Positions 598-16,393 of a stretch of 16,393 nt of DNA are shown piece after piece. The position numbers and the translations under genes are program-made. A model generated the notes under the pieces. The model searched no databases and had not been told where the DNA came from. It saw only the letters and a list, made by a program, of their open reading frames with translations. Origin of the DNA: Pseudomonadota bacterium (lineage in GTDB: Bacteria; Bdellovibrionota_B; Oligoflexia; Oligoflexales; RGVZ01); assembly GCA_041178085.1 (NCBI GenBank), contig JBEGVZ010000076.1:1-16393 (forward strand), written 5' to 3'. Numbering within the stretch: position 1 is the first letter of the stretch; every line of letters starts with the position of its first letter.

Positions 598-789
598 ATG
601 CGCACCACCGTTATCCTGAAGGACGAACTCGTCAAAAAAGCTATGGAAGTTACTAACATCAAAGAGAAAACGGCCCTGATCCACGCCGGACTGCAGGCTC
701 TAATTGACATGCACGCACGTCATCGTTTGATTGCGCTGGGCGGATCGGATCACAAAGCCAAGCCGGGAAGCAGAAGGAAAGCATTCTGA
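598..789 (+). CDS. vapB: Type II TA antitoxin, VapB family (ribbon-helix-helix, MRTT type)
   Basis: 63 aa. MRTTVILKDELVKKAMEVT..EKTALIHAGLQALI...RLIALGGS pattern, GGAGG RBS, and the TGA overlaps the ATG of a PIN gene. Confidence 0.9.
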   Translation: MRTTVILKDELVKKAMEVTNIKEKTALIHAGLQALIDMHARHRLIALGGSDHKAKPGSRRKAF

Positions 790-1151: not shown

Positions 1152-1175
1152 CTCTGTCGCGCGGCGATTTTGTCG

Positions 1176-1751
1176 TTAAACGCCAGCCTGTTTGCCGTAG
1201 CAACTTGCGCAGGCCGGCAAATATTTTTCTTCGCACCCAAGATCCACCACCGGACTATCATCATCAGGCCCCACAGCTCGGCCGTTGACCATCTTCAAGT
1301 TATAAATGGCCTTCCTGTTGCAGAAGTAACAAGTGGTCTTCACTTCTTCGATGGAATCCGCAAGCTCCAAGAGGCGCTTGCTGCCGGGAAAGAGAAACCT
1401 CTTGTAATCAGTCCTCAGGCCGTAACAGATCACCGGGATATTTTGCTTTGTTGCGATGACGCGCAACTGCCCGACAAGATCGGTCGACAGGAACTGCGCC
1501 TCATCCACGAGCAGACAATCGACCCCCGTAACGCGGGACTCGTCTATCCTTTGCCCTTCTACAAGAAGGATGTCCGCCTCCTGCTCAAGTCCGGCGCGGG
1601 AACGCACCTGCTTTTCACCAAAGCGCGTGTCGAGGGCGGGCTTCAGGATCAGAACGCGCTTGTTTTGTTGGCGGTAGTTGTGCGCAACGGCCAGCAGGTT
1701 GAGGGTCTTGGCGCTGCCCACCGCACCGTAACGAAAATATAACTTGGCCAT
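1176..1751 (-). CDS. tdk: Thymidine kinase
   Basis: 191 aa from ATG 1751. MAKLYFRYGAVGSAKT (P-loop), KPALDTR, VDEAQFL, CYGLRTD, LADSIEEVKT, Zn pairs CYFC and CASC. Confidence 0.96.
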   Translation of the reverse strand: MAKLYFRYGAVGSAKTLNLLAVAHNYRQQNKRVLILKPALDTRFGEKQVRSRAGLEQEADILLVEGQRIDESRVTGVDCLLVDEAQFLSTDLVGQLRVIATKQNIPVICYGLRTDYKRFLFPGSKRLLELADSIEEVKTTCYFCNRKAIYNLKMVNGRAVGPDDDSPVVDLGCEEKYLPACASCYGKQAGV

Positions 1752-1782
1752 TTGCGCCGCCCGCCCTGCTATTCCTGAGTGT

Positions 1783-2517
1783 TCAACTGCGTTGCAGGCA
1801 TTCAAACACGACATCCAGGCGCAGCGAAGGGAAAAGCGAGGGATGCAGGCTTTCGCGGTTATCCAACAGAAAACGGGATAACTGGCGGTCGGCCAAAGCA
1901 CGCAACGTAGGACCACCCTCATCAGCCGGCAGGATGACGGCAAACGCGCCAACGCTGGCCATGCGCCCCGGCTGGACCCGCGCTGTCTCCATCAACGCAT
2001 GACCAAGCACATGCATGCTGACCCGCGCTTCCTCAAGTATCCTCGTGATTACGGATGGGTAGTCCATTTCTGACGCCTGCTGCCGGATGCGGCGTATCTC
2101 TCCTGCAAGCGTTGCGACGTCGGTGGTCGGGTCCACCAGCAAAAGGACACCGGCCTCGTCGAGAATCGTCAAGAAATCCCGCCGCGGGCCGCGACCTGGC
2201 CTTTCACCCGCGGCCGCGCTCGACTCCGCTTCTATCGCTTCATGATGGATCTGATTGATAGCGACCTTCGACCGGGGAAACAACGACCATGCCATAAGGT
2301 TGTAATAATCATGAAGCGACCCCCGGCGAACCGCCAGCACCCCTTCTGTAAAAATCCGCTCCTCGTAATTGCCACGGGTGCGGCCAAAATCGACTGTGCG
2401 CGGCACACCGGAGACACCAACATTGCTTAAAAAACTGGCAATGAAATGCACGTCACCAGACTCAACCGCCCGCCACAGGGCTGGATGCTCCTGCAACAAT
2501 GTCCCCGGAAGTCGCAA
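1783..2517 (-). CDS. DUF3025-like protein
   Basis: Motifs YEERIFTEG..VRRGSLHDYYNLMAWSLFPRSKVAIN, RGPRRDFLTILDEAGV and HVLGHALME match my recollection of the DUF3025 family. Start codon (TTG 2517) is uncertain. Confidence 0.75.
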   Translation of the reverse strand: MRLPGTLLQEHPALWRAVESGDVHFIASFLSNVGVSGVPRTVDFGRTRGNYEERIFTEGVLAVRRGSLHDYYNLMAWSLFPRSKVAINQIHHEAIEAESSAAAGERPGRGPRRDFLTILDEAGVLLLVDPTTDVATLAGEIRRIRQQASEMDYPSVITRILEEARVSMHVLGHALMETARVQPGRMASVGAFAVILPADEGGPTLRALADRQLSRFLLDNRESLHPSLFPSLRLDVVFECLQRS

Positions 2518-2600
2518 TGCAAGAATTCCCGCAAAATTGGTATCGAACCTTCGGACATTCCGGTAAGTTCTCTGCTCAACTTTTGCAGGAGGACCGTCAC

Positions 2601-2819
2601 ATGGATCAACCAGAACTTTGGTGGAGCAAGGTTTTTGGCCCCGCAGATCCAGACACTATCCTGAACCGGGTCGATGAATCCGTGGAACTGGAAGACTACT
2701 GCGACCGCGCCGAAGGCTTCATGGACCTTGTTGAAGAGGCACTTGGCAAAAGCGTGCCGACAGGCCAGATCAAGGAAATCGCCCTTGGACTGTTACAGTG
2801 GGCCGAAGCCCAGGAGTGA
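2601..2819 (+). CDS. Small acidic hypothetical protein (72 aa)
   Basis: Strong AGGAGGA RBS (2587-2593) 7 nt before ATG 2601. It fills the gap between the DUF3025 gene and the lipoprotein gene and ends 6 bp from the convergent stop. Confidence 0.7.
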   Translation: MDQPELWWSKVFGPADPDTILNRVDESVELEDYCDRAEGFMDLVEEALGKSVPTGQIKEIALGLLQWAEAQE

Positions 2820-2825
2820 CGGAAT

Positions 2826-4781
2826 TTAGGGCATGTAAATGTGGCCCCAACCGTCTTTGATTTCCAGACCTGTTACCGAAGGTTTTGCATACTTGAAGGC
2901 AAGCTGCCCGAAGTTTGCCATGGCCTGCCAACCTGACCCAAGACTGATCGACGGTCCGTATTGGTAGGTTGTATCGCCAAATGCTGCAGGCAAAAAAGCC
3001 GTCACTTTGGCGACATCCAGCGAAGCGCCGTACATGAGTCCCGCACTGTCGGCCCATGAATTGTTGATGCCTAAATAAAGTTTTCCGCCACTGACTGGAT
3101 TAGCCGGGTTATCAACCTGGACAAAGACCCGGATCACGTCCCCCGCCTTCAACGGAGGCAACAGTTCATCACCTGATAACTTCAGCCTTTTCGCTGTCGA
3201 TCCCTGAGGAAGCAGCGAAGCGCCAAGATCGATACCTGCTTCGAATGTACTGGCCAGAGGTAAATTCAGGTCTGCTCCGAATTTGAAAGCCCCAGCAGTC
3301 GAATTGCAGGAACGCGTGACGAGGACCTCGAAGTACCAGGCGCCTGAAGATTTCCGCGATGCCGCGACGAACCCTTTGGGCTGTGCTGCCTGCACAATAC
3401 TTGCGTTTGCGACGTGACGGCAATTTGCCTGCGCTGTCGCAACATCCTTGCAGGCATATCCAAGCGATCCCAAAGTGAATCCAACGTCGGGAGTGAAACC
3501 ACTGGATTGCGCAGCGCTGGCGGGGTACGCGCTGGCAACAGCATCCTGACACAACAACTCGCTGGGAGGCGTTGGTTCTGGAATCGGCGGAACGACGCGG
3601 GGGTCATTCGCTGTTTCGATGCGCCCTGAGATTTTTTCGCCTGGCTGATCGATCCTGGTCAATGAATAAGCCGGTTGGTTCCTGTCGTTAAGGTCGTCAA
3701 AGTCGATAACCCCTTTCCAGTTGTTGACCTGCACATCCGCCTTCCCGCTGCGGTAACGCCCAAGCTCCCCGGAGGGCAGCCTTTCAACGATCAACTTTGA
3801 GCGGTCGATCAAAATCAGAACTTTGAGCATCTCATCCCCTGCAAGAGAAAGCTGCGCGCCACCACCCGCCATCGACAGGATGGAATGCAGAGAAGGGGTC
3901 AACATCCTTCGCGGGATGCCAAAACTGCTCGATGTGCTCAGGCCCAGGTTCGCTCCGGCTTCAGACCGCGGAGGCAGTAAAGTTATCTTCTCGTTGAAAT
4001 CGACGCAGGCACCGTCGACGACGGCCTTTTTCTCGGGACCAATTTTCCGGCGGCATTTGCCCCCGTCAGGACTGCCGAAAAACCGCCGGGACTCCTCGTG
4101 GAACTTCGCTTGCAAACTGGCAGCCGGCGCCCCCTGACCATTTAATTTTTTCAACGCCTCAGAAATGTCGACTTCAAAAAGGGAAGCATGGGAGACGCGA
4201 GATTCCACTACGGAGGTACTTTTTCCACAGCTGCTCAACCGTTCGCTAAAGACGCTGTTCATCGGCTCCAGGGGAGACGAAAGCCCGGAAAAATCGCCGC
4301 CCCCACAGCGCCCCTCCATGAGAATTGCGAAATGGCCGGAAATCCTGGCACCTGATTTCATGAGGGGGTCTTCCGTGCACGTATTATCTGCCGAAAGTCC
4401 AATCGAACCCCTTGCCTTATAAGTGTCCCCAGCACCTTCGATCGTGATCTGCTGACCGATTTTGTCGCAATTTGATTCCTGGTCGTCTGGTTTCTCCGGA
4501 GCATTGGAGGCGTTAGGCCCGGTGTTGTCCTCACTGTCCGCCCGGTCGTTGATGAAGTCCCCTTCTTTGCGCAGGACTTCTTCGACCATGCTTCTGCTCA
4601 ACACTGTTTTGCCGGTAAAACTGAAAGACGCGCCGCTGGTTGGTAACGCCACGGAGGCAGGCTGCTCGCCCCCTTTTCGCCGCCCTTCGATCTTTCGGCG
4701 CTGACTGTCCAGAGAACAGCCCGTCAAGCCTGCGATCATAAAAACCAGAAACCTGGCTATGCGATGCGATGCATGAGGCAT
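2826..4781 (-). CDS. Cys-rich lipoprotein with C-terminal SPRY/B30.2-like domain (651 aa)
   Basis: AGGAG RBS before ATG 4781. Signal peptide ends in the lipobox LTGC. Pro-rich linker VVPPIPEPTPPS. C-terminal SGAWYFEV...GDVIRVFV...GKLYLGINNSW...YGPSIS...ANFGQLAFKYAKP follows the SPRY pattern. Confidence 0.75.
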   Translation of the reverse strand: MPHASHRIARFLVFMIAGLTGCSLDSQRRKIEGRRKGGEQPASVALPTSGASFSFTGKTVLSRSMVEEVLRKEGDFINDRADSEDNTGPNASNAPEKPDDQESNCDKIGQQITIEGAGDTYKARGSIGLSADNTCTEDPLMKSGARISGHFAILMEGRCGGGDFSGLSSPLEPMNSVFSERLSSCGKSTSVVESRVSHASLFEVDISEALKKLNGQGAPAASLQAKFHEESRRFFGSPDGGKCRRKIGPEKKAVVDGACVDFNEKITLLPPRSEAGANLGLSTSSSFGIPRRMLTPSLHSILSMAGGGAQLSLAGDEMLKVLILIDRSKLIVERLPSGELGRYRSGKADVQVNNWKGVIDFDDLNDRNQPAYSLTRIDQPGEKISGRIETANDPRVVPPIPEPTPPSELLCQDAVASAYPASAAQSSGFTPDVGFTLGSLGYACKDVATAQANCRHVANASIVQAAQPKGFVAASRKSSGAWYFEVLVTRSCNSTAGAFKFGADLNLPLASTFEAGIDLGASLLPQGSTAKRLKLSGDELLPPLKAGDVIRVFVQVDNPANPVSGGKLYLGINNSWADSAGLMYGASLDVAKVTAFLPAAFGDTTYQYGPSISLGSGWQAMANFGQLAFKYAKPSVTGLEIKDGWGHIYMP

Positions 4782-4878
4782 GGAGAGCTCCTGATCCCAA
4801 TGAGAACTGCCAGATGGTTCGGTTTTTCTACGGAAACCTTGAAGGCGTTTTGCCACGTACGACGATTATTCAAGTCGC

Positions 4879-4887
4879 TGATATAAT
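4879..4887 (+). promoter_or_regulatory. Extended -10 (sigma70-type) element
   Basis: TGaTATAAT in an AT-rich intergenic region upstream of the zinc-ribbon gene. No well-spaced -35. Confidence 0.4.
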
Positions 4888-4905
4888 GAGGTTTTTTAAT
4901 TTTTC

Positions 4906-4932
4906 TAAGGCTTTTGCCAATACCGCCGATCC
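4906..4932 (+). promoter_or_regulatory. Sigma28 (FliA)-type promoter
   Basis: TAAG (4906-4909)-N15-GCCGATCC (4925-4932) against the consensus TAAA-N15-GCCGATAA, about 100 bp upstream of the zinc-ribbon gene. Confidence 0.7.
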
Positions 4933-5034
4933 CCAATTCATAGGGCTTGGGTGTTCCCGGCCGGGGTGAATGATTTTTTGCCCCAAGCCGGATCAAGGTC
5001 GCCCGGTCCGCCAAAAAGGAGGCATCGAAGGACT

Positions 5035-5340
5035 ATGAGGAAGCCGCTGACGTATAACGAAAATGTGTACTTCTTCCAGCGCGATCGCGAGCTCATCCAT
5101 GAAATGGAGGAGAAGCGTCGCCAGGTGCAGCATCGCCGCGAGACGCACAATCACGTGGGACATTGCACCGCCTGCGGGGAAGACACCATCGAGGTCACGC
5201 TTGAGGCAGCTCACATGCATGTCTGCCCGTCGTGCCACGGTGTGTTTGTCGAAGGCGAGGCTGTATCGGAGCTTCTGCGCCGTGATGCGGTCACCATGGT
5301 GACCGGCGGCAAGAAGCGCAAGCGGAACCAGGCTGCCTGA
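5035..5340 (+). CDS. Zinc-ribbon (zf-TFIIB-like) protein
   Basis: 101 aa. ENVYFFQRDRELI charged helix, then CTAC...CPSCHGVFVEGE (CxxC-x16-CxxCxGV[WF] pattern). AGGAGG and GAAGGA RBS candidates upstream. Confidence 0.8.
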   Translation: MRKPLTYNENVYFFQRDRELIHEMEEKRRQVQHRRETHNHVGHCTACGEDTIEVTLEAAHMHVCPSCHGVFVEGEAVSELLRRDAVTMVTGGKKRKRNQAA

Positions 5341-5378
5341 CAAGCAGGCTGGTGCGGGGCATGCAGCCCGCAAAGACA

Positions 5379-5413
5379 AAGGGCCGGGTGCGCAATTCAT
5401 GCATCCGGCCCTT
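5379..5413. terminator. Hairpin between convergent genes, probably a bidirectional terminator
   Basis: AAGGGCCGGGTGC (5379-5391) / GCATCCGGCCCTT (5401-5413), one G-U pair or mismatch, with weak T-rich tails on both strands. Confidence 0.6.
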
Positions 5414-5436
5414 GGCTTTCAACTCATATTGCTCGA

Positions 5437-6204
5437 TCAGAAGGCGTAGCCGAGACCCATGCTAAGCTCCGGAATTGGTCGAAGCGCAAGCCGCGTGTCA
5501 GGAAGCGTGTTGATCATTGACTCATAATCCGCAACGGCCTGGGAGTCCTTGCTATCCACGTTGACGCTGCGACGGAAGTAGTGCGAGATGCCGGCACCCA
5601 CCGTTACCGAAAGACTCTGACTGTTAACCAGCCAACGGTTGCCCATGCCCAGGGACAGTCCGTGCCGCATGTCCGTGATCAAGTCGGTTTCGTCCATCGG
5701 CGATTCTGCGGAGACATCCACCGGCAATGCATTCGCGGAATCGAGAGATTCCGTGTAACGGTTGGCGCGGGAGTTGACCCGAACGTAGTCATAGCTCATC
5801 CGGGCATAGAAGCCCCGCATCGATTCCGGCACTTCCCAGAAGCTGACATTCCAGCGCAAGCGCACGGCATCGAGCTTTTGCCGCTCACCAGGAAAAAGGT
5901 CCTCGCGACGAACGAGACCTTCGGAGTCGCCCTTCGCAAGGAAGGTTCCGCTCCAGATCTCAGGCCCCATGGAAAAGCGCTCACCGACATTGAAGTCCAC
6001 CGCAGCACCGAATTTACTGGTTGAGATTCCACTGGCACGTTCCTCGTAGAGAGCGGACGAAGGCGCCACCGGATCGATTTCCGCAACGAGGCGGCGGTTG
6101 ACGTTGGCGGCGAGAGCCTGCCCTGAAACGATCCCACCAAGGACAGCAAATGCTGCGTATGAAAACGTCACTGACATTGCCTGCCTGGTCCTGATGCAGT
6201 GCAT
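5437..6204 (-). CDS. Predicted outer-membrane beta-barrel protein (hypothetical)
   Basis: 255 aa. GGAGG RBS, signal peptide ending ALA, alternating amphipathic strands, C-terminal LSMGLGYAF (YxF beta-signal). Confidence 0.75.
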   Translation of the reverse strand: MHCIRTRQAMSVTFSYAAFAVLGGIVSGQALAANVNRRLVAEIDPVAPSSALYEERASGISTSKFGAAVDFNVGERFSMGPEIWSGTFLAKGDSEGLVRREDLFPGERQKLDAVRLRWNVSFWEVPESMRGFYARMSYDYVRVNSRANRYTESLDSANALPVDVSAESPMDETDLITDMRHGLSLGMGNRWLVNSQSLSVTVGAGISHYFRRSVNVDSKDSQAVADYESMINTLPDTRLALRPIPELSMGLGYAF

Positions 6205-6358: not shown

Positions 6359-6429
6359 CGCACCCCAACGGGACCCTGTTTCCGGACTGATCCTGTTTTT
6401 GGGAGGGCGAGAGCCAGACGGGATACATG

Positions 6430-6458
6430 TTGATCCATCAATAGCCATGCACTATCTT
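6430..6458 (+). promoter_or_regulatory. Candidate sigma70 promoter of the carotenoid operon
   Basis: TTGATC (6430-6435)-17 bp-TATCTT (6453-6458). Confidence 0.45.
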
Positions 6459-7535
6459 TTCTCAGTGACTATCTTCAATAACGACCTCTTTACGCGTGCC
6501 GCGAGCCTGAGCAATTGGCCGGGTGTCGGATCCTATTTGCCGACGAAAAAGGACCGCGGTAGCGTCGATGTCCCGTCCGATGCTTTCCTGCCCCCGCCAC
6601 AGGCGTTCGATGCTTTGATCAAACCGGTTCGTGAATTTGTCGGGCGTGACTCAAAACAAGTGCGCGCCCAATTGGTCGGGATCGGTTTTGATCTTTCCCG
6701 GGACTCAGAAGCCGCAGCAACGGGGCGCGGCCCCCTCCTCGAATGTCTGGCTTGCGTGGTCGAGGCGCTACACGCTGGATCGCTCGTCATTGATGACATC
6801 CAGGATGCCAGCGACGTTCGCCGCGGCGAACCTTCCCTCCACCGCCAGATCGGAGTTCCGCTCGCCATAAATGCTGCCAACTGGCTGTACTTCTGGCCCG
6901 CCGAATTGATCAGGAAGCAAAACCTCGACTCCGGTATGGAGTTGGAAATATACCGGCTGTTTCATGCCACCATGACCCGGGCGCACTACGGGCAGGCTCT
7001 GGATCTTGGACACGACATGACTCAAGTGCCCCAGGATCATGTGCGGGACATTTCATTGGCGACAATAGAACTCAAAACCGGGGAGCTCATGGCCATGTGC
7101 GCTGAGCTCGGTGCTATCGCCGGTGACGCAAGTCCGGAGCGGCGAGCGAACCTGGCCATGTTTGGCCGGCGCTTTGGCGTGGCGCTACAAATGTTCAACG
7201 ACATCGCTGAAGTGGCTGGCGCAGCAACTTTCACGGAATCGCAAGTGTCGTTCAGGCGACCTTCCTGGCTCTGGGCTGTGGCCGCGAACGAACTTGATCC
7301 GGATGAATACAGTCAATTTCAATTGCTGATGAAGATACCCGACGTACGTGACGATCACACGACTCTTTCACAGCACCCAGTTGTAGCCCAAGCCATCACG
7401 CTGGCTTGTGCAGAAATGAAAAACACGATGAATCTTGTGGCAGAAATAACCGGAGATCCAAAATCAGCCAGCCATGAGAAAGCTCTTCACGTCATCAAGG
7501 AACTTGCCCGGAAAGTCATGAGTGCCTATGCGTAA
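6447..7535 (+). CDS. crtE: Polyprenyl (geranylgeranyl) diphosphate synthase
   Basis: LHAGSLVIDDIQD..RRG (first Asp-rich motif), AINAANWLYF, GQALDL, KTG, LQMFNDIAE. First gene of the crt cluster and overlaps the crtI start. Start uncertain (ATG 6447 or GTG 6465). Confidence 0.88.
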   Translation: MHYLFSVTIFNNDLFTRAASLSNWPGVGSYLPTKKDRGSVDVPSDAFLPPPQAFDALIKPVREFVGRDSKQVRAQLVGIGFDLSRDSEAAATGRGPLLECLACVVEALHAGSLVIDDIQDASDVRRGEPSLHRQIGVPLAINAANWLYFWPAELIRKQNLDSGMELEIYRLFHATMTRAHYGQALDLGHDMTQVPQDHVRDISLATIELKTGELMAMCAELGAIAGDASPERRANLAMFGRRFGVALQMFNDIAEVAGAATFTESQVSFRRPSWLWAVAANELDPDEYSQFQLLMKIPDVRDDHTTLSQHPVVAQAITLACAEMKNTMNLVAEITGDPKSASHEKALHVIKELARKVMSAYA

Positions 7536-9090
7536 GACCAGAGAACCAGCAAAGGTGGCCGTCATTGGCAGTGGTTTTGGCGGACTTGCTGCAGCGATCC
7601 GGCTGCAGGCGGCAGGCCACCAAGTCGTCCTGTTTGAAAAACGGGACCAACCTGGTGGCAGGGCCTATGTATACCGGGACAAGGGATTCACGTTTGACGC
7701 AGGTCCGACTGTGATAACCGCTCCGGACTGTTTACGTGAACTGTTCGATTGTGCCGGCAAGAAGCTGGATGATTATGTCGAACTCTTGCCAGTCACCCCA
7801 TTTTACCGGCTATTCTGGGAAAGCGGCTTCCGCTTCGACTACTCGAATGATCCGGACAGCACATTCGATCAAATCCAGAGAAAATCCCCGTCTGACGCCA
7901 AGGGGTACAGGGATTTCCTGGAATACTCGAAAGAAGTTTTCGACGAAGGATACACCAAGCTGGCGCATGTCCCGTTCCTTGACTGGTGGAGCATGATTCG
8001 TGTGGCTCCCCAGTTACTTCGCCTGAGTGCCTATCGATCGGTATTCAAGACCGTGGCTCGCTTCATCAAAGACCGGGAGCTGCGCCAGGCTTTCAGCTTC
8101 CATACCCTGCTGGTCGGTGGAAACCCCTTCAAGACATCTTCCATCTATACGTTGATCCATTATCTCGAGCGCAACTGGGGAGTCTTTTTCCCGCGCGGCG
8201 GCACTGGAGCCCTCGTGAGGGCGCTGGTCCGGGTTTTTGAAGAAATGGGTGGCGAGGTGCGGCTTTCCACCCCGGTTGAGGAAATCGTCACGCAGGCTGG
8301 AGTCGTAACAGGTGTCAGAACGGCCAGCGGAACCTGGCCTTGTGATGTCGTGATCTCCAACGCCGACGTGGTGCACAGTTACAGCCACTTGTTGCGCAAC
8401 GCCGCAGAGGCGGAACCATCCAGAAAAAAAGCGCTGCGGCAATCGCAGAGCATGTCCCTTTTCCTGATCTATTTCGGCACCAAACGGCAATACCCGGAAC
8501 TGGCGCACCACAACATTCTTTTCGGCAAATCATACCGTGGTCTGCTGAAAAAAATATTCAGCAAGGCAGATGCCATTCCCGAAGAATTTTCTCTCTATCT
8601 TCATGCGCCAACGCGATCAGACCCGGGTATGGCCCCAGACGGCTGTGAGGCATTTTATGTGCTGTCACCTGTCCCGCATCTTGGCCATCTGGACATTGAC
8701 TGGAAAAAAGAAGGGCCTGCCTACGCAGACAGGATCCTCGATTATATTGAGAAGCACTACGCCCCGGGGCTGCGACAGGAAATTGTGACGCAGCGGATCT
8801 TCACACCGGAGGACTTCAAGCTTGAACTGAACGCCCACCTGGGATCTGCATTCTCCAGTGAACCTGTGCTCTGGCAAAGTGCGTATTTCCGTACGCACAA
8901 TCGCTGCGACCAGCTCAAAGGCATGTATTTCACGGGAGCCGGAACCCATCCCGGTGCCGGGGTGCCCGGTGTCGTCAATTCCGCAAAAGCAACCGCAACA
9001 CTGGTGATCCAGGACTTGATGTCGGAAAAGATTCCCGCAGGCAGCCGACCGGATGAAGGCCTTGAACAACTCAGTATCATCCCAAGTTGA
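7528..9090 (+). CDS. crtI: Phytoene desaturase
   Basis: 520 aa. VIGSGFGGLAAAIRL FAD-binding motif, FDAGPTVIT, LLVGGNPF, SAYFRTHNR, GAGTHPGAGVPGV. Confidence 0.97.
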   Translation: MRKTREPAKVAVIGSGFGGLAAAIRLQAAGHQVVLFEKRDQPGGRAYVYRDKGFTFDAGPTVITAPDCLRELFDCAGKKLDDYVELLPVTPFYRLFWESGFRFDYSNDPDSTFDQIQRKSPSDAKGYRDFLEYSKEVFDEGYTKLAHVPFLDWWSMIRVAPQLLRLSAYRSVFKTVARFIKDRELRQAFSFHTLLVGGNPFKTSSIYTLIHYLERNWGVFFPRGGTGALVRALVRVFEEMGGEVRLSTPVEEIVTQAGVVTGVRTASGTWPCDVVISNADVVHSYSHLLRNAAEAEPSRKKALRQSQSMSLFLIYFGTKRQYPELAHHNILFGKSYRGLLKKIFSKADAIPEEFSLYLHAPTRSDPGMAPDGCEAFYVLSPVPHLGHLDIDWKKEGPAYADRILDYIEKHYAPGLRQEIVTQRIFTPEDFKLELNAHLGSAFSSEPVLWQSAYFRTHNRCDQLKGMYFTGAGTHPGAGVPGVVNSAKATATLVIQDLMSEKIPAGSRPDEGLEQLSIIPS

Positions 9091-9091
9091 A

Positions 9092-10036
9092 ATGACACCC
9101 GGCCAGGCAATCCGGCAGGGCTCAAAAAGCTTTGCGCTTGCGTCGCTCTTCTTGCCGTCAGCCTCCCGCCAACGCGCACTGATCCTCTATCAATGGTGCA
9201 GGAACTGCGATGACGCGATTGACGAAGCGCCTGACGCTGAATCTGCACGACTTCAACTTTCCAGGATGGAGGACCGGGATTTAGCCGGCCCCACCCTCGC
9301 AGGGCCGGAGTGGCTCGACGACTGGCAGCGATCAGAATTCATAGCCGGGATGCGCATGGACGTCGAGGGACGGTCCTACGAGCACCTGGAGGACCTCGAG
9401 CAATATTGCTTCCGCGTTGCCGGGGTCATCGGACTTATGATGTGTCCGCTTTTAGGGGCGCATCCTGAGATGGCTCCTCCGCATGCCGTCTCACTTGGCT
9501 GCGCCATGCAATTGACTAATATTGCGCGGGACGTACAGGCAGACGCGCGCCTGGGGCGGGTTTATATTCCGCAAAAGTTACTGCCAAACTTGATAGATGA
9601 TCAGGCGAATTCCCTTTGCGCCCACCCTGAACTCACGCACGCAGCCGTGCGGATTCTTCTGAGTCGCGCGGACGAACTCTACGAAAACGGATTTCATGGC
9701 CTCGCGTGGTTGCCTTGGCGCGTTGCATTCGCGATCGCAGTTGCAGGCAAGGTCTACCAGCGAATTGGACACAAACTCCTGCGTACAGCTGCAGTAAACC
9801 CCTGCCGGGCGTTCGGAAACAGGACCGTCGTTTCCTTACCCGGCAAGCTGTCTGCCGTTGCATCAGCTGGATTGCTGGTGCTGAAAATCAAAATTATCCG
9901 GTCACGGAGCGGATTGAGACCGGTCACCATTCCGGCTTTTGGTCCCAATCGTGGCGGCAAGAAATCCAGCCACCGCGAACCACCACCAGGTCTCCTGGAT
10001 GCCACGACTCATTTCGGGCCCACCCTGAAAGATTGA
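9092..10036 (+). CDS. crtB: Phytoene synthase
   Basis: GSKSFALAS, YQWCRNCDDAID, GMRMD, YCFRVAGVIG, QLTNIARDVQADARLGRVYIP. ATG 9092 lies 1 bp after the crtI stop (alternative start 9053). Confidence 0.95.
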   Translation: MTPGQAIRQGSKSFALASLFLPSASRQRALILYQWCRNCDDAIDEAPDAESARLQLSRMEDRDLAGPTLAGPEWLDDWQRSEFIAGMRMDVEGRSYEHLEDLEQYCFRVAGVIGLMMCPLLGAHPEMAPPHAVSLGCAMQLTNIARDVQADARLGRVYIPQKLLPNLIDDQANSLCAHPELTHAAVRILLSRADELYENGFHGLAWLPWRVAFAIAVAGKVYQRIGHKLLRTAAVNPCRAFGNRTVVSLPGKLSAVASAGLLVLKIKIIRSRSGLRPVTIPAFGPNRGGKKSSHREPPPGLLDATTHFGPTLKD

Positions 10037-10128
10037 CGCCAACGCGCCAAATAATACTCCAAAAGCTGCTCCGCCTGCCGTCCACGATGCGATTTGGACT
10101 ATGGCCTTAGGCCTGGGAAATAAGCCTC

Positions 10129-10893
10129 TCATGAATTCCTCCTGCTCGCGGGCAGCCGGAACCATGGCAAGCCCGGATGCTTGTGATGGGTCAGATGATA
10201 ACCGAAGTGCCAGCAGGAAATCAGCGACAATAACCACGGGTAGCCTGAATCCCGTGCATGATGCCGGTCTGCAAAAGGCTTTCCGGCCTTGGGGCGATGT
10301 GGCAGCCACGTACCGAAAAAAAACAATTGGATCCCGCTCAAAACCGCCGGCAGAACCCAGAACTGGATCACATTTCTTTCGGGGATTTTCAGCACATGAA
10401 AGAAGACCTGTGCCACAGCCATCAAGACCAGGACCTGGCGAAGGCCCAGATACTGCCGGAAGAATCGCCAGCCCCACCCTACGAAACCAGCTCCACCGGG
10501 TGTCGACTGATCGTAAAAATCGGGATCTTGTGAGGATGCCACGTGCAAGTGATGGGCAGCGTGTTTCGGGACCAGCTGGTCAAAGTCGAAAGCAGCATAA
10601 AGCGCTGCCGTGATACGGCCAAGCCACCGATTCAGGCGTGGATTCCCTGGGCAGGCCGTTCCGTGGCAGGCGTCGTGGGTGACGATAAACATTCCACAAT
10701 AGAGAAACTGGATCCACAACACCAAGGCAAGTGCGGCTGGCGAGTCCGGCAAAATCCCCGTCTGGAATTGAAAAAAAGCGTAAAAAATACTTCCTGCCCA
10801 CAAACCGATGACAGCAACCGCCAGAAAGGGGGCAAGCAGATCGCGTTTATCAGACAGAAAAATGCTGGAATTTCCTTGTTCAGGGCGGATCAG
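10129..10893 (-). CDS. crtW: Beta-carotene ketolase (CrtW type, fatty-acid-desaturase superfamily)
   Basis: His boxes GMFIVTHDACHG, KHAAHHLH..DPDF and CWHFGYHLTHH, plus LFFFGTWLPHRP and PWFRLP. The frame stays open upstream of the called TTG (10803), through a hydrophobic helix, to a CTG at 10893 preceded by AGAAAGGA. Confidence 0.9.
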   Translation of the reverse strand: MIRPEQGNSSIFLSDKRDLLAPFLAVAVIGLWAGSIFYAFFQFQTGILPDSPAALALVLWIQFLYCGMFIVTHDACHGTACPGNPRLNRWLGRITAALYAAFDFDQLVPKHAAHHLHVASSQDPDFYDQSTPGGAGFVGWGWRFFRQYLGLRQVLVLMAVAQVFFHVLKIPERNVIQFWVLPAVLSGIQLFFFGTWLPHRPKAGKPFADRHHARDSGYPWLLSLISCWHFGYHLTHHKHPGLPWFRLPASRRNS

Positions 10894-10927
10894 GTGCTAT
10901 CCTTTCTGGATTAAAAGGGTCCCGGCC

Positions 10928-11773
10928 ATGTGGGCATTGTTTATCATCAATGCGATATCAATCTTCGGATACGCAACTTTTACGCTACATCCGGAATTGC
11001 TGGCGCGCTACCCCTGGTCACCGCCGATCTACGCCGTGTCTTATCCCCTGTTTGCTCAACTGCAGATTTTTTTGGGGTTCTGGCTGTGCATAAGGGCCTG
11101 CCACAAGGCGATGAAATGGCGCTGGATCAGTTATTTCATCCCGGCATTTCTCATCAGTTTTGCGATGGAGTATGGCGGCACAACTTATGGCATTCCGTTT
11201 GGAAAATATACCTACACAAGCCTGCTTGGTTGGAAAATCGCCGACAAGGTGCCACTGCTGATTCCAATTAGCTGGTTTTGCATGTCCTTGTGTTGTTACC
11301 TGCTATCGGCCCTCATCACAGGCGGGACACGCCGCCCGATCTTTCACCAGCCATCCAGGCGATGGCAGCCATCCCTGGAACGCATCGGTCTTGCGGCGCT
11401 TTTGATGATTGCCTGGGATTTTACCCTCGAACCAGCAATGAGCCAATTGACCCCTTACTGGGTCTGGGAGGAATCTGGTGTCTTTGTTTTTGGCGTTGCA
11501 GTGCGTAACCTGCTCGGCTGGCTGATTACTGGTCTGATGATTTTTTCCAGCTTTGAAGCGCTTCGCCTGGGTGATTATGTCTCCCTCTTCGCGGCAGAGT
11601 GGCCAGGGCATTTTTACCTGCTAAACCTATTTCTTCCCCTCGGACTCGCAATGGCTGGCGGAGCGTGGGTCCCCGTTTTCCTGACGACTGCGGTTCTTGT
11701 GGCCTGCCTTGTCTTTGCCTTGACGAGGGGAACCCTGCGACGCGGGCTGCTGATCCGTGGCACCGCAACATAA
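10928..11773 (+). CDS. cruF: Carotenoid 1,2-hydratase (CruF family)
   Basis: 281-aa multi-TM protein. EYGGTTYGIPFGKYTY..LG....VPLLIPISWF, WDFTLEPAM, YWVW, NLLGW. Located in the crt cluster. Confidence 0.88.
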   Translation: MWALFIINAISIFGYATFTLHPELLARYPWSPPIYAVSYPLFAQLQIFLGFWLCIRACHKAMKWRWISYFIPAFLISFAMEYGGTTYGIPFGKYTYTSLLGWKIADKVPLLIPISWFCMSLCCYLLSALITGGTRRPIFHQPSRRWQPSLERIGLAALLMIAWDFTLEPAMSQLTPYWVWEESGVFVFGVAVRNLLGWLITGLMIFSSFEALRLGDYVSLFAAEWPGHFYLLNLFLPLGLAMAGGAWVPVFLTTAVLVACLVFALTRGTLRRGLLIRGTAT

Positions 11774-12413
11774 CAGGACAATCCGCTGGTTATGGGACCG
11801 CTACCTGGCATTCAGGTACCGCGGGGCTTTCGCCGCCATTCACTTCAATCTTTCTGCCGCCGAGGGCAACCTCGATCCTTCACTGCCGGTCATCCTGATT
11901 CCCAACCACATCAGCTGGTGGGATGGATTTATGTGTTTCGAGATCCAGCGGCGGCTGCGGCCAGGTTCGGGAATTTATTCGTTGATGCTCGAAACCGAAT
12001 TGCGGAAGTTTCCGGTTTTAAGACAGGTCGGATGTTTCGGGATACATCCAGGCAACCCGGCAAGTGTGCGCAGGGCATTCATGCAGTTTCGGGACCTCGT
12101 CACCGCAGACCCATACCGTACCTTGACTTTTTTTCCGCAGGGACGGATTTCGCCAATGCGCCAACGGCCTTTGCGATTCTCACGCGGCATTGAACTTCTG
12201 GTCAGGCTTTCCGGACGTGTCCAGTGCATCCCTGTCGCCTTGCACATCGAACCCTTGAACGCGGCCAAGCCAACATTTTTTGTTCATGCCGGGAAACCTA
12301 TCGACAGCCGTGACCGGAAAATCACTAGCAAACTGCTGGAAGAAGAAGTCACCAATCTTTTGGATCAAGTCTCGATCACCAGTCCGATGAAGTTCCTTAC
12401 GGAGGGAACCTGA
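11757..12413 (+). CDS. PlsC-family acyltransferase, probable carotenoid-glycoside acyltransferase (CruD-like)
   Basis: 218 aa. NHISWWD (HxxxxD) and FFPQG motifs. The GTG start overlaps the end of cruF by 17 bp and the stop overlaps the GT2 start. Confidence 0.85.
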   Translation: MAPQHNRTIRWLWDRYLAFRYRGAFAAIHFNLSAAEGNLDPSLPVILIPNHISWWDGFMCFEIQRRLRPGSGIYSLMLETELRKFPVLRQVGCFGIHPGNPASVRRAFMQFRDLVTADPYRTLTFFPQGRISPMRQRPLRFSRGIELLVRLSGRVQCIPVALHIEPLNAAKPTFFVHAGKPIDSRDRKITSKLLEEEVTNLLDQVSITSPMKFLTEGT

Positions 12414-13576
12414 TGTCGCAGTGGACAGTCATGCTGCTAAACGGGCTGGCCTGGCTTTCCCTCGGGATGTTGATTGTCGCCGCCATCATGGCGGTCCTCA
12501 ATGCGATCTTTACGGGCCGGCTTCGTCTGGATGCAAAGCCTGTCGCCGACGGCCCACTGGTCAGCGTACTGATCCCAGTTCGCAATGAGTCAGATAACCT
12601 CCGGAATCTTTTACCCGCGCTCATGGCGACTACATTCAAAAACATTGAGGTGATCGTCCTTGACGATGAATCCACCGATGGATCCCATGAAATTGCCTTT
12701 TCGATCCTTCAGAACGCCAGCTTCCCCGCGCAAGTCGTTAACGGCCAGCCGTGGTCGCCGTCGCTAGGTCTCTCGGGCAAGACACATGCGTGTGCACAGC
12801 TCGCGGAATTGGCACGTGGAGAGATCCTGATTTTCTGTGACGCTGATGTACTGCCTTCCCCCGACGCTGTGGGACTCACATCTGCCCATTTGTCGAGCCC
12901 TGGGTTTCGTGATCATGCGGCCGGCCTGTCCGCACTTCCTGGGCAGTCCTGTCGGGGGTGGCGCGAACGCTCACTTATCCCCTGGGTCATGCACTTGCCG
13001 CTCATGATCACGGTACCTCTTTTTTGCTCGTGGCGATTGCCAACTGAATCCATCCAGATCGCCAACGGCCAGTGGCTCGCGTTGTATGCGCGTGACTACA
13101 TCGCCAGCGGCGGCCATCGAGCCCTGGGCGCGACTCCGTTGGAGGACGTCACCCTGGCAAGGCAGGTCCAGCGCAAAACCGGACGTGGAGTCCGCCCAGT
13201 GTTTGCTGCCAGCGACATTACTGCCGCGATGTACGTCGATTGGCACTCAATGGTGAATGGATTCTCGAAAAACCTTGTCTCAATTGGCGGCGGGACGCCG
13301 GGACGGTTCCTGGCCGTAATCATGTTGCTAAACATTGTCTTCCTGTTTCCCATGTGGGGTTGGCTGGTTCAACCCGGTTTGGCAGCAACCGGACTTCTGG
13401 CGTGCGTGCTTTTGCGCCTTGTGACGGCCACCGTTTTCAAGATGCCAGCCTGGGATTTGTTGAGGCACCCAGCTAGTTTGTTTTTGCTCGACCTGGCAGC
13501 CTGGAAAGCGATCAAGACCAGCTTGCGCGGCGCTTATGAATGGAAAGACCGGGTGGTTAAATGGTCCGCAACATGA
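12413..13576 (+). CDS. Family 2 glycosyltransferase, probable hydroxy-carotenoid glycosyltransferase (CruC/CrtQ-like)
   Basis: 387 aa. N-terminal TM, VSVLIPVRNE, DDESTDG, GKTHAC, FCDAD (DxD), ANGQ, LEDV, C-terminal TMs and WKDR. Located in the crt cluster. Confidence 0.88.
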   Translation: MSQWTVMLLNGLAWLSLGMLIVAAIMAVLNAIFTGRLRLDAKPVADGPLVSVLIPVRNESDNLRNLLPALMATTFKNIEVIVLDDESTDGSHEIAFSILQNASFPAQVVNGQPWSPSLGLSGKTHACAQLAELARGEILIFCDADVLPSPDAVGLTSAHLSSPGFRDHAAGLSALPGQSCRGWRERSLIPWVMHLPLMITVPLFCSWRLPTESIQIANGQWLALYARDYIASGGHRALGATPLEDVTLARQVQRKTGRGVRPVFAASDITAAMYVDWHSMVNGFSKNLVSIGGGTPGRFLAVIMLLNIVFLFPMWGWLVQPGLAATGLLACVLLRLVTATVFKMPAWDLLRHPASLFLLDLAAWKAIKTSLRGAYEWKDRVVKWSAT

Positions 13577-15615
13577 ATGCGCGCGATCCAGATTTTGATG
13601 TGATCATCATCGGTGGCGGGCTTGCCGGGATGATGCACGCTGATTTTATCGCGGATGACAAGTCGCCGGATCTTCGCGTGGCGATAATCGATCCCGACCC
13701 GGATTTGCTGGCACAAAAGACCTTCGCTGCGTGGCGTCTGAAGTCCTCGCTGCCGCATCGATACTCCAATTGCGTCGAAAATCGCTGGGGGCATTTTCGG
13801 ATCACCTGCCAGGACGGCCAGCAGGTTTTGCGGGACTTCGGCGCACATTGCTATGAGCGAATCCCAGGCGAGCGATTGATGACCAGGATCCGGAGCAGGC
13901 TCGAAGGGGATTCCCGCTTTCAAATCCTTCGGGATGAAGTCACCACCATCTTGGACGCGGGCACTTCGCAAAATCCCGGCCAGGCTGGACAAGTTACGAC
14001 TGCGTCTGGAGAAGTTCTGTCCGCAAAGCGGATTATCAGCTCCGTGACGGCAGGAGATCCAGAAGTCCTGCAGTATTTCCTTGGCTTTGAAGTGGAAACG
14101 ACAGTGGACCACTTTGATCCCGACGTGGTGGACTTGATGGACTTTCGCGTTGAGCAAGAGAGCGACGTCAGATTCGTCTACATACTTCCGTTCACGAAGC
14201 GGCAAGCACTGGTGGAGTTCACAGTTTTCTCCGCGACACGGATATCGGCACCGGAATGCGAAGCTATCCTTCGCGATTACATTGGAAAAAGCCTGGCATT
14301 GCCGGATTTCACGATCACAAAAGTTGAATCGGGAGCAATCCCCATGACGCTGAACGCACAGCCACGTTTTCCAGCGGCCAGCATGCGTTCGGTCATCGAG
14401 GTTGTGGGGGGCGCTGCCGGCATGGTCAAACCAAGCACAGGATATTCTTTCCAGCGCAATTTTGAATCTCTCAATGACCCGTCGCGCCTGACCTCAACGA
14501 CTTCATACTGGCATTTCCGTTTCCAGGTATACGACGCCTTGCTGCTACGGATCATACAGGCCAAGGGCGCGATGATCTCAAAAATTTTCCCTGTGCTATT
14601 CACCGCGAATGCACCATCCAGGATCTTCGCATTTCTTGACGAAAAATCTGCGTTCTTCGATGAAATAAAAATTTTTTTTCGACTTCCGTGGATCCCGTTC
14701 CTTGGCAGCCTTGTGGTTTTATACCCGTTTTTGTTCGCTTCGTCGGCCAGCGCCATTCTTTACCACACGGTCGGCGGCGCATCCGTCTGGGTCATTCCAG
14801 TCATTGGCTTGCTGACAACTGGAATTGCGCACGGAAGCCTGGATCACTTGCTCGACCGCGAAGACCGAAGCCGCATTCCGTTTTACACCCGATATATCGG
14901 CTCCATCGCGGCATTCCTGTTCGTCTGGTACATCTATCCGCCTCTGGCATTTGCTTTTTTTATTTTTCAATCAGCGGATCACTTTGGTGAGGCCAACTGG
15001 ATACGCGCCCTGCGGAATTCCGGGTATGCGGCTTGGACGCGTGCGCTTGCCTGGATTTGGGGAATGTTTGCCGCGCTTTTTGGCGTTCTCGTCCATTGGC
15101 AAGAGGCCAGCCCCATTGTCCAACGGATTCTGCAGGACTCCGTACCTGTCTCTGCCCTTTCAGCGAGTGTCGCCCGCGGGGCTGGTCTGCTTATTTTCGT
15201 TGCCGCCTTGCTGGCGTCATGGACACTCGACCGCTATGAACGCAAGGTACTGGGGCGGGCAGTTTGCGGCCTGCCGGCGACCGCGATGCTTGGCATGTCC
15301 ATCCTGGCTTTGCCGTTACTGCCCGGCTTTTTCTGCTTCTTCGCTTTCTGGCATGGATGGGACTCGATCGTAGCGCAGCGGGCTGCCACGGGCTGGACAT
15401 CAAAGGAGTATGCACTCCGGGCGGCGCGCTATACGTTTATCAGCGTTACAGGGATTTTCCTGCTGTTCGTGTTGTATTCAGCGTGGTCTGAGCACGACCG
15501 TATCTGGCAAATACTCTTTGTCATGATTGGCGCATTGACTGCCGCACACGCGCCAGTCATGAAGGGTTTTCTGAAAAGAAAACCGCCCCGCTTTTGGAGC
15601 GGGGCGGTTAGCTGA
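13573..15615 (+). CDS. crtY-blh: Fusion protein: lycopene beta-cyclase (CrtY) plus Blh/Brp-family beta-carotene 15,15'-dioxygenase
   Basis: One 680-aa frame with an ATGA overlap on the GT2 stop. N-half: DVIIIGGGLAG, LMDFR, FVYILPF, ALVEFT, ESGAIPM, GGAAGMVKPSTGYSF. C-half is multi-TM: GIAHGSLDH, SADHFGE, FFAFWHG, ALTAAH. Confidence 0.9.
   Translation: MNARDPDFDVIIIGGGLAGMMHADFIADDKSPDLRVAIIDPDPDLLAQKTFAAWRLKSSLPHRYSNCVENRWGHFRITCQDGQQVLRDFGAHCYERIPGERLMTRIRSRLEGDSRFQILRDEVTTILDAGTSQNPGQAGQVTTASGEVLSAKRIISSVTAGDPEVLQYFLGFEVETTVDHFDPDVVDLMDFRVEQESDVRFVYILPFTKRQALVEFTVFSATRISAPECEAILRDYIGKSLALPDFTITKVESGAIPMTLNAQPRFPAASMRSVIEVVGGAAGMVKPSTGYSFQRNFESLNDPSRLTSTTSYWHFRFQVYDALLLRIIQAKGAMISKIFPVLFTANAPSRIFAFLDEKSAFFDEIKIFFRLPWIPFLGSLVVLYPFLFASSASAILYHTVGGASVWVIPVIGLLTTGIAHGSLDHLLDREDRSRIPFYTRYIGSIAAFLFVWYIYPPLAFAFFIFQSADHFGEANWIRALRNSGYAAWTRALAWIWGMFAALFGVLVHWQEASPIVQRILQDSVPVSALSASVARGAGLLIFVAALLASWTLDRYERKVLGRAVCGLPATAMLGMSILALPLLPGFFCFFAFWHGWDSIVAQRAATGWTSKEYALRAARYTFISVTGIFLLFVLYSAWSEHDRIWQILFVMIGALTAAHAPVMKGFLKRKPPRFWSGAVS
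15571..15609 (-). terminator. Intrinsic terminator of the rhodopsin transcript, embedded in the crtY-blh 3' end
   Basis: Perfect 12-bp stem AACCGCCCCGCT (15581-15592) / AGCGGGGCGGTT (15598-15609) with a 5-nt loop. On the minus strand it is followed by TTCTTTT and starts about 45 nt after the rhodopsin stop. Confidence 0.8.
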
Positions 15616-15652
15616 TTTTGAATCAGTTCTTCGCGGGTGTTTTACCCGGGAA

Positions 15653-16393
15653 TCAGTGAGCTGCTGCGGTGAAGCCTTCCGCCTCAGACTTGGCGCGCGC
15701 GATCCAGTAGATCATCACGCCATAGAATGCCTTGGCAAGCACATCAGCGATCGCATAACCAACCTGGATACCCACAACGGATGACTGAGGGTTGATGCCA
15801 AACATTGGCAGCATGTAGGTGATCGGATAGAAGCCCCAAGTCAGGAGAAGAAGAAGACGGATATTGACCAGCAGGACCTTGGCTTCACCCGGTTGGGTCT
15901 CGATGGCTTTGCCCAGTTTGCCCCAGAGTACCATCAGGATGTAGACGAACGGGATGGAAGACAGGGTTCCCCAAATCGCGCGGGTCGTGTTGTCCGTTGC
16001 AATTTCACCCGGGTAACCGAGAGCGATCATGAGGAAAGCTGCGATTGCGAGCTTGCCAAAAAGGCCTTCACGCTGATTCTTCGGCAGCGCCAGAACGGCA
16101 ACGAGTTCGACGAGGAGGAGGGGCACCGTGAGGAGCCAGTCAACATAACGGTAGGCATCGTTGAACGGCTTGCCAGATGGCGTGTACATGTTGCCATTCA
16201 TGGTGAAAGCTTCGTTCCAGCTATTAAAGATACGGAAGTAGTGGTAGCACGCGATCGCGACGACAATCGAAGAGACCAGCAACGCGCCACGATACTTCGG
16301 GGCTACTTGCGAACGGCCTGCCAGGAAAAAAATAAAGGCAGCACCCATGCTCGCAATGGTGAAAGAAAACACGTTATAGACCAGATAAAATTG
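15653..16393 (-). CDS. Xanthorhodopsin-family light-driven proton pump (N-terminus beyond window)
   Basis: Frame open to the edge (QFYLVYNVFSFTIASM...). Motifs YHYFRI, PFNDAYRYVDWLLTVPLLLVEL (D-T-E), LGYPGE, WGTLSSIPF, TWGFYPI, and retinal Lys in ADVLAKAFYG. Confidence 0.96.
   Translation of the reverse strand, partial: QFYLVYNVFSFTIASMGAAFIFFLAGRSQVAPKYRGALLVSSIVVAIACYHYFRIFNSWNEAFTMNGNMYTPSGKPFNDAYRYVDWLLTVPLLLVELVAVLALPKNQREGLFGKLAIAAFLMIALGYPGEIATDNTTRAIWGTLSSIPFVYILMVLWGKLGKAIETQPGEAKVLLVNIRLLLLLTWGFYPITYMLPMFGINPQSSVVGIQVGYAIADVLAKAFYGVMIYWIARAKSEAEGFTAAAH

Follow-up and report, generated by a model that had tools for sequence, protein, structure and literature searches.

The question raised by this locus is whether one compact set of bacterial genes could supply a single light-driven proton pump with two pigments, retinal and a home-made keto-carotenoid antenna. 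The DNA stretch analyzed, hereafter called the window, comprises 16,393 nucleotides and is the entire contig C76 of G000 (3.0 Mb, 136 contigs, 96% complete), the genome of an uncultured bacterium of the order Oligoflexales; G, L and C numbers designate the genomes, loci and contigs compared. An earlier note had placed crtE, crtI, crtB, crtW, cruF, an acyltransferase (AT) gene, a family 2 glycosyltransferase (GT2) gene, crtY-blh and a xanthorhodopsin (XR) gene within about 10 kb with little spacer DNA. Pfam and NCBIfam profile scans over 16 open reading frames (ORFs) of the window have located all nine genes, in that order and in one 10-kb block, with every Pfam match above its cut-off. Same-strand neighbours overlap by 1-38 nt and blh is separated from the rhodopsin gene by 37 nt; a gene for a protein of 76 amino acids had been overlooked. 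The block is not a single same-strand operon, because crtW, the small gene and the rhodopsin gene are located on the minus strand. These genes, the residues of the pump, the linkage and the occupation of several chromosomal sites are established.

The reading proposed is that two pigments serve one pump, retinal as chromophore and a monocyclic 4-keto-carotenoid acyl-glycoside ester as antenna, a claim that on the sequence evidence we hold to be evenly balanced; it appears rather probable that some home-made keto-carotenoid, of whatever structure, would be the antenna. The pump probably works like the pair formed by the Salinibacter ruber xanthorhodopsin (SrXR) and salinixanthin. Enzyme activities, pigment structure, binding and energy transfer are all inferred in this mechanism. 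CrtE, CrtB and CrtI would, judging from their families, produce lycopene; the CrtY of the fusion would close a ring at one lycopene end or at both, and the attached Blh would cleave beta-carotene to retinal. The antenna would have the ring and the anchor of salinixanthin minus the 3',4' double bond and the 2'-hydroxyl group, would bind to the side window of the pump and would pass blue-green light energy to retinal, the rhodopsin being a predicted outward green-absorbing H+ pump. If true, freshwater heterotrophs would be shown to produce a keto antenna of their own, and one clonable block carrying pump, retinal and a salinixanthin-like pigment would make the rule of keto- versus hydroxy-carotenoid antennas testable with native pairs and provide a two-chromophore module ready for use. 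Two separate leads are the CrtY-Blh fusion and the pump-linked small protein.

The xanthorhodopsin and its carotenoid pocket

The rhodopsin gene (15653..16393, minus strand; Pfam Bac_rhodopsin match) codes for 253 amino acids in total, and its first seven codons are located on contig C127. Contigs C127 and C76 overlap by 120 nt, and a single contig from run X1 (5,688 nt) bridges their join, spanning window positions 12612-16393 and 2,027 nt on the C127 side, which rules out a truncated opsin as an assembly artefact. The top PDB sequence matches were 3DDL, 6NWD, 7YTB and 9WFA (SrXR, the Gloeobacter rhodopsin GR, Kin4B8 and psXR), with nearly equal scores (E 1e-84 to 1e-86). A fold search in which a model of the G002 orthologue (93% identical; predicted local distance difference test score 91) stood in for the window protein gave template modelling scores of 0.93-0.95 to the top PDB relatives and 0.94 to 3DDL. 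SrXR, GR and TR are the nearest proteins by sequence and by fold, and by sequence the pump is a subgroup-I xanthorhodopsin.

In SrXR numbering, used here for all pump residues, the proton-pump positions His62, Asp96, Thr100, Leu104, Glu107, Asp236 and Lys240 are present (DTE motif), and from them a green-absorbing outward proton pump is predicted. The fenestration residue Gly156 is also present, together with the equivalents of Tyr207, Met208 and Met211. In the helix-F slot described by Vollmers et al. (T160, L194, L197, A198, G201, I205) four of six residues are identical to SrXR, the changes being T160S and A198L, with Leu as in GR. Das et al. tabulated four pocket residues, Y-A-S-Y for Kin4B8, Y-M-M-A for SrXR and Y-L-M-L for GR (PMC12308411); these are Y-M-M-F in the window pump and in all 10 members of the host's family that carry it, Gly156 and Met211 being kept in 10 of 10. 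The 208/209 positions of Kin4B8 are Met/Phe here, so that the pocket has a hydrophobic floor like those of SrXR and GR and unlike the Ser/Tyr floor of Kin4B8. A Met sulfur has been described to contact the keto group at a position numbered 233 (PMC13093654), which we infer to be 211 in SrXR numbering.

Pigment genes of the block

The lycopene genes are located on the plus strand. The crtE gene, predicted to encode a geranylgeranyl diphosphate synthase, occupies 6399..7535 (PF00348, 124 bits; 49-60% identity in family relatives), its start being uncertain and 6399 the longest option. It is followed by crtI (7522..9090; predicted phytoene desaturase) and crtB (9053..10036; predicted phytoene synthase, PF00494, 173 bits), whose 3' tail is non-conserved when the tails are aligned and overlaps the small gene on the opposite strand. 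In NCBIfam, crtI (crtI_fam, TIGR02734, 659 bits) and blh exceeded their cut-offs; CrtW, CruF and the CrtE and CrtB equivalogs remained below them, yet these were the best or near-best families. The type-2 idi gene lies outside the block, within a mevalonate operon on C80, and the block therefore depends on the host for isoprenoid precursors.

The CrtY-Blh fusion (13561..15615, plus strand, 684 amino acids; PF05834 168 bits, PF15461 86 bits) joins a predicted lycopene beta-cyclase (about residues 1-390) to a predicted beta-carotene 15,15'-dioxygenase (about residues 410-670; TIGR03753, 104 bits against a cut-off of 95). Both domains were found in 45 of 48 fusion matches, the query's own entry counted, which rules out the fusion as an assembly artefact. 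The Blh part retains four His that 42-43 of the 43 local Blh sequences share, and a fifth, the second of the HxxxH motif (His in 15 of 43), is Ser here; we take this second His to be catalytic in marine Blh. The fusion also adjoins proteorhodopsin genes (L028, L029, L130), and the proteorhodopsin genomes G044 and G051 carry it without crtW; CrtY-Blh is therefore not specific to the ketolase block. In L044 (7209-8534) the CrtY portion of the fusion is largely eroded and Blh is intact. Published fusions comprise CrtIB, CrtBY, CrtIBY and the protist CrtI-B-Yc/d-Blh (PMC10284914, PMC10016063).

The crtW gene runs from 10893 to 10129 (minus strand, 254 amino acids) and encodes a predicted beta-ring 4-ketolase. 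Its CTG start is situated 7 nt past a Shine-Dalgarno-like site, and TTG or ATG is aligned there in relatives (the codon alignment of the crtW start and small gene had 16 rows, that of L045 being out of register). NF045690 was the best NCBIfam family (213 bits against a cut-off of 350), with CrtR at only 55 bits; the three His boxes are all retained, and the nearest named relatives, 44-78% identical, are labelled 'beta-carotene ketolase (CrtW type)' by one source. On the plus strand, cruF (10928..11773), a predicted carotenoid 1',2'-hydratase gene, matched PF04240 with 148 bits (cut-off 25) and NF045693 with 141 bits (cut-off 400), and homology starts at the ATG at 10928. The crtW and cruF starts are back to back, 34 nt apart (10893-10928) and even closer in relatives, which would place their promoters inside each other's coding regions unless cruF is read through from crtE. 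With the varying CTG, TTG or ATG start, this arrangement possibly reflects overlapping transcripts or a tuned ketolase level. In the cluster loci, and in L112-L115 and L147 as well, the acyltransferase gene (11757..12413, plus strand; PF01553, 27 bits) has cruF and GT2 as its neighbours; in the window the GT2 gene follows (12413..13576, plus strand; PF00535, 61 bits). From their families and their position in the cruF-AT-GT2 triad, the acyltransferase likely plays the CruD role and GT2 the CruC role.

A CrtZ gene was found in G000 neither with PF04116 nor with a profile built from seven local CrtZ sequences; PF04116 matches in G008, G135 and G339 scored nothing with that local profile. In the same genome, 96% complete, the CrtO model matched crtI only (47 bits), and crtI is the sole CrtI-family gene above the cut-off, so that no second one was available as crtD. 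As CrtZ was not found, the only predicted ring oxygen is the 4-keto group, and with crtZ, crtD and crtO all missing from the G000 searches the predicted product is not salinixanthin. The earlier note had proposed that the locus makes both chromophores; the retinal and keto-carotenoid acyl-glycoside gene sets do lie beside a fenestrated XR, with salinixanthin itself excluded. The pigment predicted alongside retinal is a 4-keto-gamma-carotene 1'-glycoside fatty-acyl ester, and some echinenone or canthaxanthin is probably also formed. In E. coli, Chloroflexus CruF, CruC and CruD together with a bicyclase CrtY gave OH-gamma-carotene glucoside ester beside beta-carotene (PMC13704108), and the same logic predicts the 4-keto-gamma-carotene glycoside ester here. 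For the route through CrtW that the note had put forward to a salinixanthin-like antenna, G000 has a predicted CrtW and no CrtO-level match. A CrtW plus CruF route to monocyclic 4-keto carotenoids has already been proposed for Algoriphagus (PMC10784355), giving the predicted chemistry a precedent, and S. ruber and T. aquaticus were already known to have a ketolase gene, crtO, in association with their opsin genes (PMC3646047). The sole P450 gene of G000 (L111, C4:1-1335), fused to a C-terminal ferredoxin-like domain, looks CYP51-like by its motifs. Myxococcus reportedly offers a further CrtW precedent, with myxobactone.

The small gene (9902-10132, minus strand), detected by clustering neighbouring ORFs, fills the 92-nt gap between crtB and crtW, and its start overlaps the crtW stop (ATGA). 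It codes for a glycine-rich hydrophobic protein of a family without name, for which 63 representatives were obtained at E<=0.001, most of these (about 60) being 42-107 amino acids long, and 52% of the differences are at third codon positions. No Pfam match was obtained at E<=0.1; in the ESM Atlas the best score was 0.85, to clusters without names, ten of which gave only 'hypothetical protein' when looked up, which is a lead only. In L045, L049, L072 and L162-L165 it immediately follows the gene for the rhodopsin. Nine metagenome loci carry it, eight of them with XR, the ninth contig ending 450 nt past the small gene; in four of the nine it follows XR with no cruF or crtW in the locus. It was not found in L043, L046-L048 and L050 and is therefore not essential. 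The protein is likely a pump accessory.

Linkage, history and alternative readings

The synteny survey of XR, crtW, cruF, GT2 and acyltransferase genes, which the earlier note had proposed as a check, has revealed a conserved linkage. Within the family, this XR together with crtW and crtI is present in 10 of 22 genomes, cruF being found in nine of the ten (the contig of G006 breaks there). The other 12 genomes are without crtW, crtI and cruF, one of them having a different XR with blh, and the block is all-or-none within the family. Gene order is identical in the nine family relatives carrying the block, as far as contigs extend, which argues that the arrangement is not due to chance. Among 131 genomes of the phylum, crtW was found only in these 10. 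Outside the family, an XR of 73-78% identity is encoded at nine loci, which belong to Pseudobdellovibrionaceae, Bacteriovoracaceae and other Bdellovibrionota, with cruF-AT-GT2 in eight, crtW in six and differing gene orders, the genes being rearranged in Bdellovibrionaceae and Bacteriovoracaceae. In L043, L044, L046 and L048 the tailoring genes adjoin the pump and crtEIB is not in the locus, the locus being the scope of this search. Four of the outside-family metagenome-assembled genomes are listed as rhodopsin-bearing in PMC7701988, the main text of which does not contain the term crtW.

In a wider sample of 401 Bdellovibrionota genomes, rhodopsins were found in 35 and were of XR type in 20. 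Strong cruF matches occurred in 12 of the 20 XR genomes versus 7 of the 381 others, kin not being independent in these counts. The crtW gene was found in 12 of the 401 genomes, in four beside this XR, in two with another rhodopsin and in six without rhodopsin, and all four crtW loci examined away from this XR have adjacent crtZ. A count over 70 XR loci excluded L001-L016, L031-L039, L109, L110 and L125-L127 (redundant), L080-L093, and rhodopsins below 250 bits; the motifs of L141 and L100 were pattern artefacts. Near XR, crtW was present at 18 of 28 Met211 loci, 0 of 23 Ser/Thr211 loci and 0 of 19 others, and cruF-AT-GT2 at 20 of the 28 Met211 loci. Three Thr211 XR loci sit in crtE-I-B-Ycd-Z clusters, with crtZ instead of crtW, and the genome of L050, whose XR is nested in the XR clade and has Thr211, contains neither crtW nor cruF. 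In the quick XR trees used here, the association between Met211 and crtW rests close to one clade.

The earlier note had also suggested a portable cassette, and this holds in the sense of an old movement as a block. The flanks differ among relatives (six contexts), and both flanks of two of these contexts are contiguous in G000, which thus shows empty sites; an empty version of G000's own site was not found in G001 and G002, where its two flank genes lie on different contigs. Six other flank genes of L040, L043 and L046 gave only 26-63% matches to G000. The window CrtI shares 68-69% identity with its counterparts in the Bdellovibrionaceae clusters and 55-57% with four CrtI of the same order, and it groups with the former in the CrtI tree (Shimodaira-Hasegawa-like approximate likelihood ratio support 97). 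The approximately unbiased test rejected monophyly of the same-order Oligoflexales CrtI (p=0.021, the group having been chosen after the first tree). Composition is host-like (GC 55.2 versus 56.4%; 19% of 228 windows had a larger tetranucleotide distance), and no integrase, transposase or other mobility gene was seen among the flank ORFs scanned in G000, which are part of all flank ORFs; a recent foreign island is ruled out on both grounds. No tRNA gene was found in the window or L030, and 3 of 21 loci had one. Patchy presence, differing sites, the discordant CrtI tree and host-like composition together point to an old transfer between lineages followed by repeated relocation as a block.

Several observations weigh against a keto-carotenoid antenna. 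Kin4B8 binds salinixanthin without energy transfer (bioRxiv 2022.08.24.505090, PMC12308411), and psXR, which has the same Y-L-M-L pocket as GR, binds lutein and did not bind canthaxanthin (PMC12779958), so that a hydrophobic pocket floor is not sufficient for a keto antenna. GT2 and the acyltransferase are assigned on family and position alone. The entire cluster is kept in G131 (L040) with crtW missing, and L045, L051, L162, L164 and L165 have Met211 and no crtW or cruF in the locus (L164 being a 2-kb contig). L043, the sole cluster locus with crtZ, carries it beside crtW. The cruF-AT-GT2 genes occur away from any rhodopsin in L112-L115, and the six crtW genomes without rhodopsin include G361, with back-to-back crtW and cruF. 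The test of correlated evolution between Met211 and crtW/cruF was not significant (sign test p=1, the branches with good support offering two independent pairs), and R. marinus makes salinixanthin without rhodopsin (PMC5822342).

A co-transferred light-adaptation package, in which retinal serves the pump and the keto-carotenoid ester acts in the membrane or in photoprotection with no antenna use, would account for cruF-AT-GT2 and crtW without rhodopsins in the same phyla, for the R. marinus pigment, for the crtW loss in G131 and for the failure of the pocket rule in psXR, and a common need for lycopene would suffice to favour linkage. It is less easily reconciled with the tailoring genes that stay beside the pump in the four loci where crtEIB is not found, with the frequency of cruF in XR genomes (kin not independent), with Gly156 and Met211 kept throughout the family, or with crtZ, which accompanies every unlinked crtW examined and occurs in the cluster at one locus only; we regard this explanation as possible, though unlikely. 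Alternatively, CrtY and CrtW could make a bicyclic keto antenna of the Gloeobacter kind, echinenone or canthaxanthin, and the acyl glycoside would be a separate membrane pigment. CrtY must supply a beta-ring product to Blh, probably beta-carotene, on which CrtW acts, and GR, which resembles the pump about as much (E 1e-85) as SrXR does (E 2e-86), binds both carotenoids; however, cruF-AT-GT2 is linked to the XR clade at least as often as crtW, and the CrtY-Blh fusion would tend to route beta-carotene into retinal, which makes this alternative improbable. Very doubtful is some other route, either uptake of hydroxylated xanthophylls as in Kin4B8 and psXR, or cleavage of CrtW products by the divergent Blh to a 4-oxo-retinal chromophore. 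The lutein bound by psXR over a hydrophobic floor, a Blh clade without the His present in 15 of 43 sequences and the promiscuous Blh cleavage reported in a 2026 preprint (10.64898/2026.08.06.743266) agree with it, whereas the pump has no Ser/Tyr at Kin4B8 positions 208/209, where S208A left 2% of zeaxanthin binding (PMC12308411), uptake leaves the linkage unexplained, and the same fusion stands beside proteorhodopsin, with no crtW, in G044 and G051.

Other rhodopsin and carotenoid loci showed additional features. In L072 and L073 a fasciclin gene precedes cruF, the acyltransferase gene, GT2 and XR, all in one direction and with no crtW, and CrtO-like matches of about 320 bits are found elsewhere in these genomes; fasciclin genes are near XR in six loci. 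A protein of about 306 amino acids without Pfam match is encoded near rhodopsin or carotenoid genes in seven loci other than the window (L041:5227-6144, L042, L043, L044, L075, L138, L139). The XRs of L094-L099 (G105-G112, family f19) form a distinct clade with F-M-Y-I; their loci contain neither blh nor crt genes, crtI had no match in the genomes, and the retinal may be scavenged. L128 (G361) has a crtY-E-I-B, crtZ, crtW cluster without rhodopsin, crtY being split into two frames; its cruF (10585-12888) is in frame with a C-terminal extra region, presumably NfeD-like, and is followed by an SPFH/Band 7 gene. In G002 (L027:8788-10337, C2) a second cruF (48%) converges on a second rhodopsin gene of 213 amino acids with the middle helices missing, probably a decayed copy.

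Neighbouring features and comparison with known systems

Upstream of the rhodopsin gene, C127 carries hemH and then a gene for a MerR plus B12-binding regulator (L030:13394-14434), about 1.5 kb from the rhodopsin start with hemH in between, which we assume to be CarH/LitR-like; none was seen beside the cluster in the relatives' loci. A motif formed by TTGACC, about 18 nt and a GAC(A/C)AT-like element (L030:15840-15870) is conserved upstream of the rhodopsin gene in most of eight aligned family genomes and is likely its own sigma-70 promoter; the promoter scan was at chance level (3 found versus 5.1 expected). A hairpin with a 13-bp stem and T-rich tails on both strands (15581..15609), near the convergence of blh and the rhodopsin gene, is a possible shared terminator and the longest stem found, in a scan whose total of 14 was within the shuffled range (11.1 +/- 3.3). 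The left flank (789-6204) codes for VapC/PIN, thymidine kinase, DUF3025, a 676-amino-acid protein without Pfam match and a zinc-ribbon protein, as well as a 255-amino-acid protein conserved in the family (16 of 22 genomes); the genes of 789-6204 are unrelated to the block. The closest database rhodopsins (90-93% identical) come mostly from records titled 'Oligoflexales bacterium', and from related records the host habitat is likely freshwater.

In the literature searched, no description was found of an XR-crtW-cruF-GT-acyltransferase block, of a bacterial CrtY-Blh fusion or of the small protein; supplements of lake and glacier surveys, possibly showing such clusters, were outside the search. 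A link between actR and genes of the cruF type has reportedly been drawn in papers on acI actinorhodopsins. Proteorhodopsin and subgroup-II XR operons, which have been horizontally transferred (PMC7701988), share with the block a complete retinal pathway beside the opsin (crtEIBY, blh), but they have no crtW, cruF, GT2 or acyltransferase gene, and their described crtY and blh are separate. Chloroflexus and Rhodothermus (CruF-CruC-CruD) and Algoriphagus (CrtW plus CruF) use the same enzyme types for a psi-end and a 4-keto ring. The former two differ in using CrtO, and the Algoriphagus flexixanthin pathway in having CrtZ and CrtD and no acyl glycoside; these papers do not connect the carotenoid genes with any rhodopsin.

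Kin4B8 (7YTB, 8I2Z), described by Chazan et al. as a Bdellovibrionota pump with a hydroxy antenna (bioRxiv 2022.08.24.505090), resembles the window pump in its related hosts, freshwater origin and fenestrated DTE type, and differs in the polar Ser208/Tyr209 floor and the hydroxy-carotenoid antenna. The loci with its Y-A-S-Y motif (L132-L134), in which Ala replaces Gly at 156, are a separate branch linked to blh only. GR (6NWD), which binds echinenone and canthaxanthin (bioRxiv 2022.08.24.505090), has near-equal similarity and the same helix E-F lengths; Gly178, Thr179, Phe185, Pro226 and Ile227 are kept and Thr182 is Ser in the window pump. Its host is cyanobacterial, its antenna is bicyclic, and no carotenoid cluster has been shown beside it.

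SrXR (3DDL), the best PDB match, shares DTE, His62, Gly156, Tyr207-Met208-Met211 and an opsin-associated ketolase gene, and salinixanthin is of the monocyclic 4-keto acyl-glycoside type predicted for the block; in the block, however, the ketolase is CrtW and not CrtO, neither CrtD nor a 2'-hydroxylase was found, no search having been aimed at the latter, and the predicted chromophore is shorter. Expression of SrXR and production of salinixanthin are both difficult. Vollmers et al. described subgroup-I clusters as lacking retinal genes (PMC3646047), whereas crtE, crtI, crtB and crtY-blh adjoin the opsin here, a genomic and not a protein difference. Two organisms have provided proof that a xanthorhodopsin receives energy from a keto-carotenoid, one being an extreme halophile and the other a terrestrial cyanobacterium (bioRxiv 2022.08.24.505090). 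Only tentatively, since we hold it to be somewhat less probable than its contrary, the block may be viewed as a complete, transferable 10-kb two-chromophore photosystem. It would be the third native XR system with a keto antenna and would use CrtW in place of CrtO, the CrtY-Blh fusion would divide the flux into a retinal and an antenna share, and a small membrane subunit not described before would travel with the pump clade. In bacteria related to Bdellovibrionota, Met211 pumps would go with ketolase genes and Thr211 pumps with hydroxylase genes, so that linked genes would predict the native antenna.

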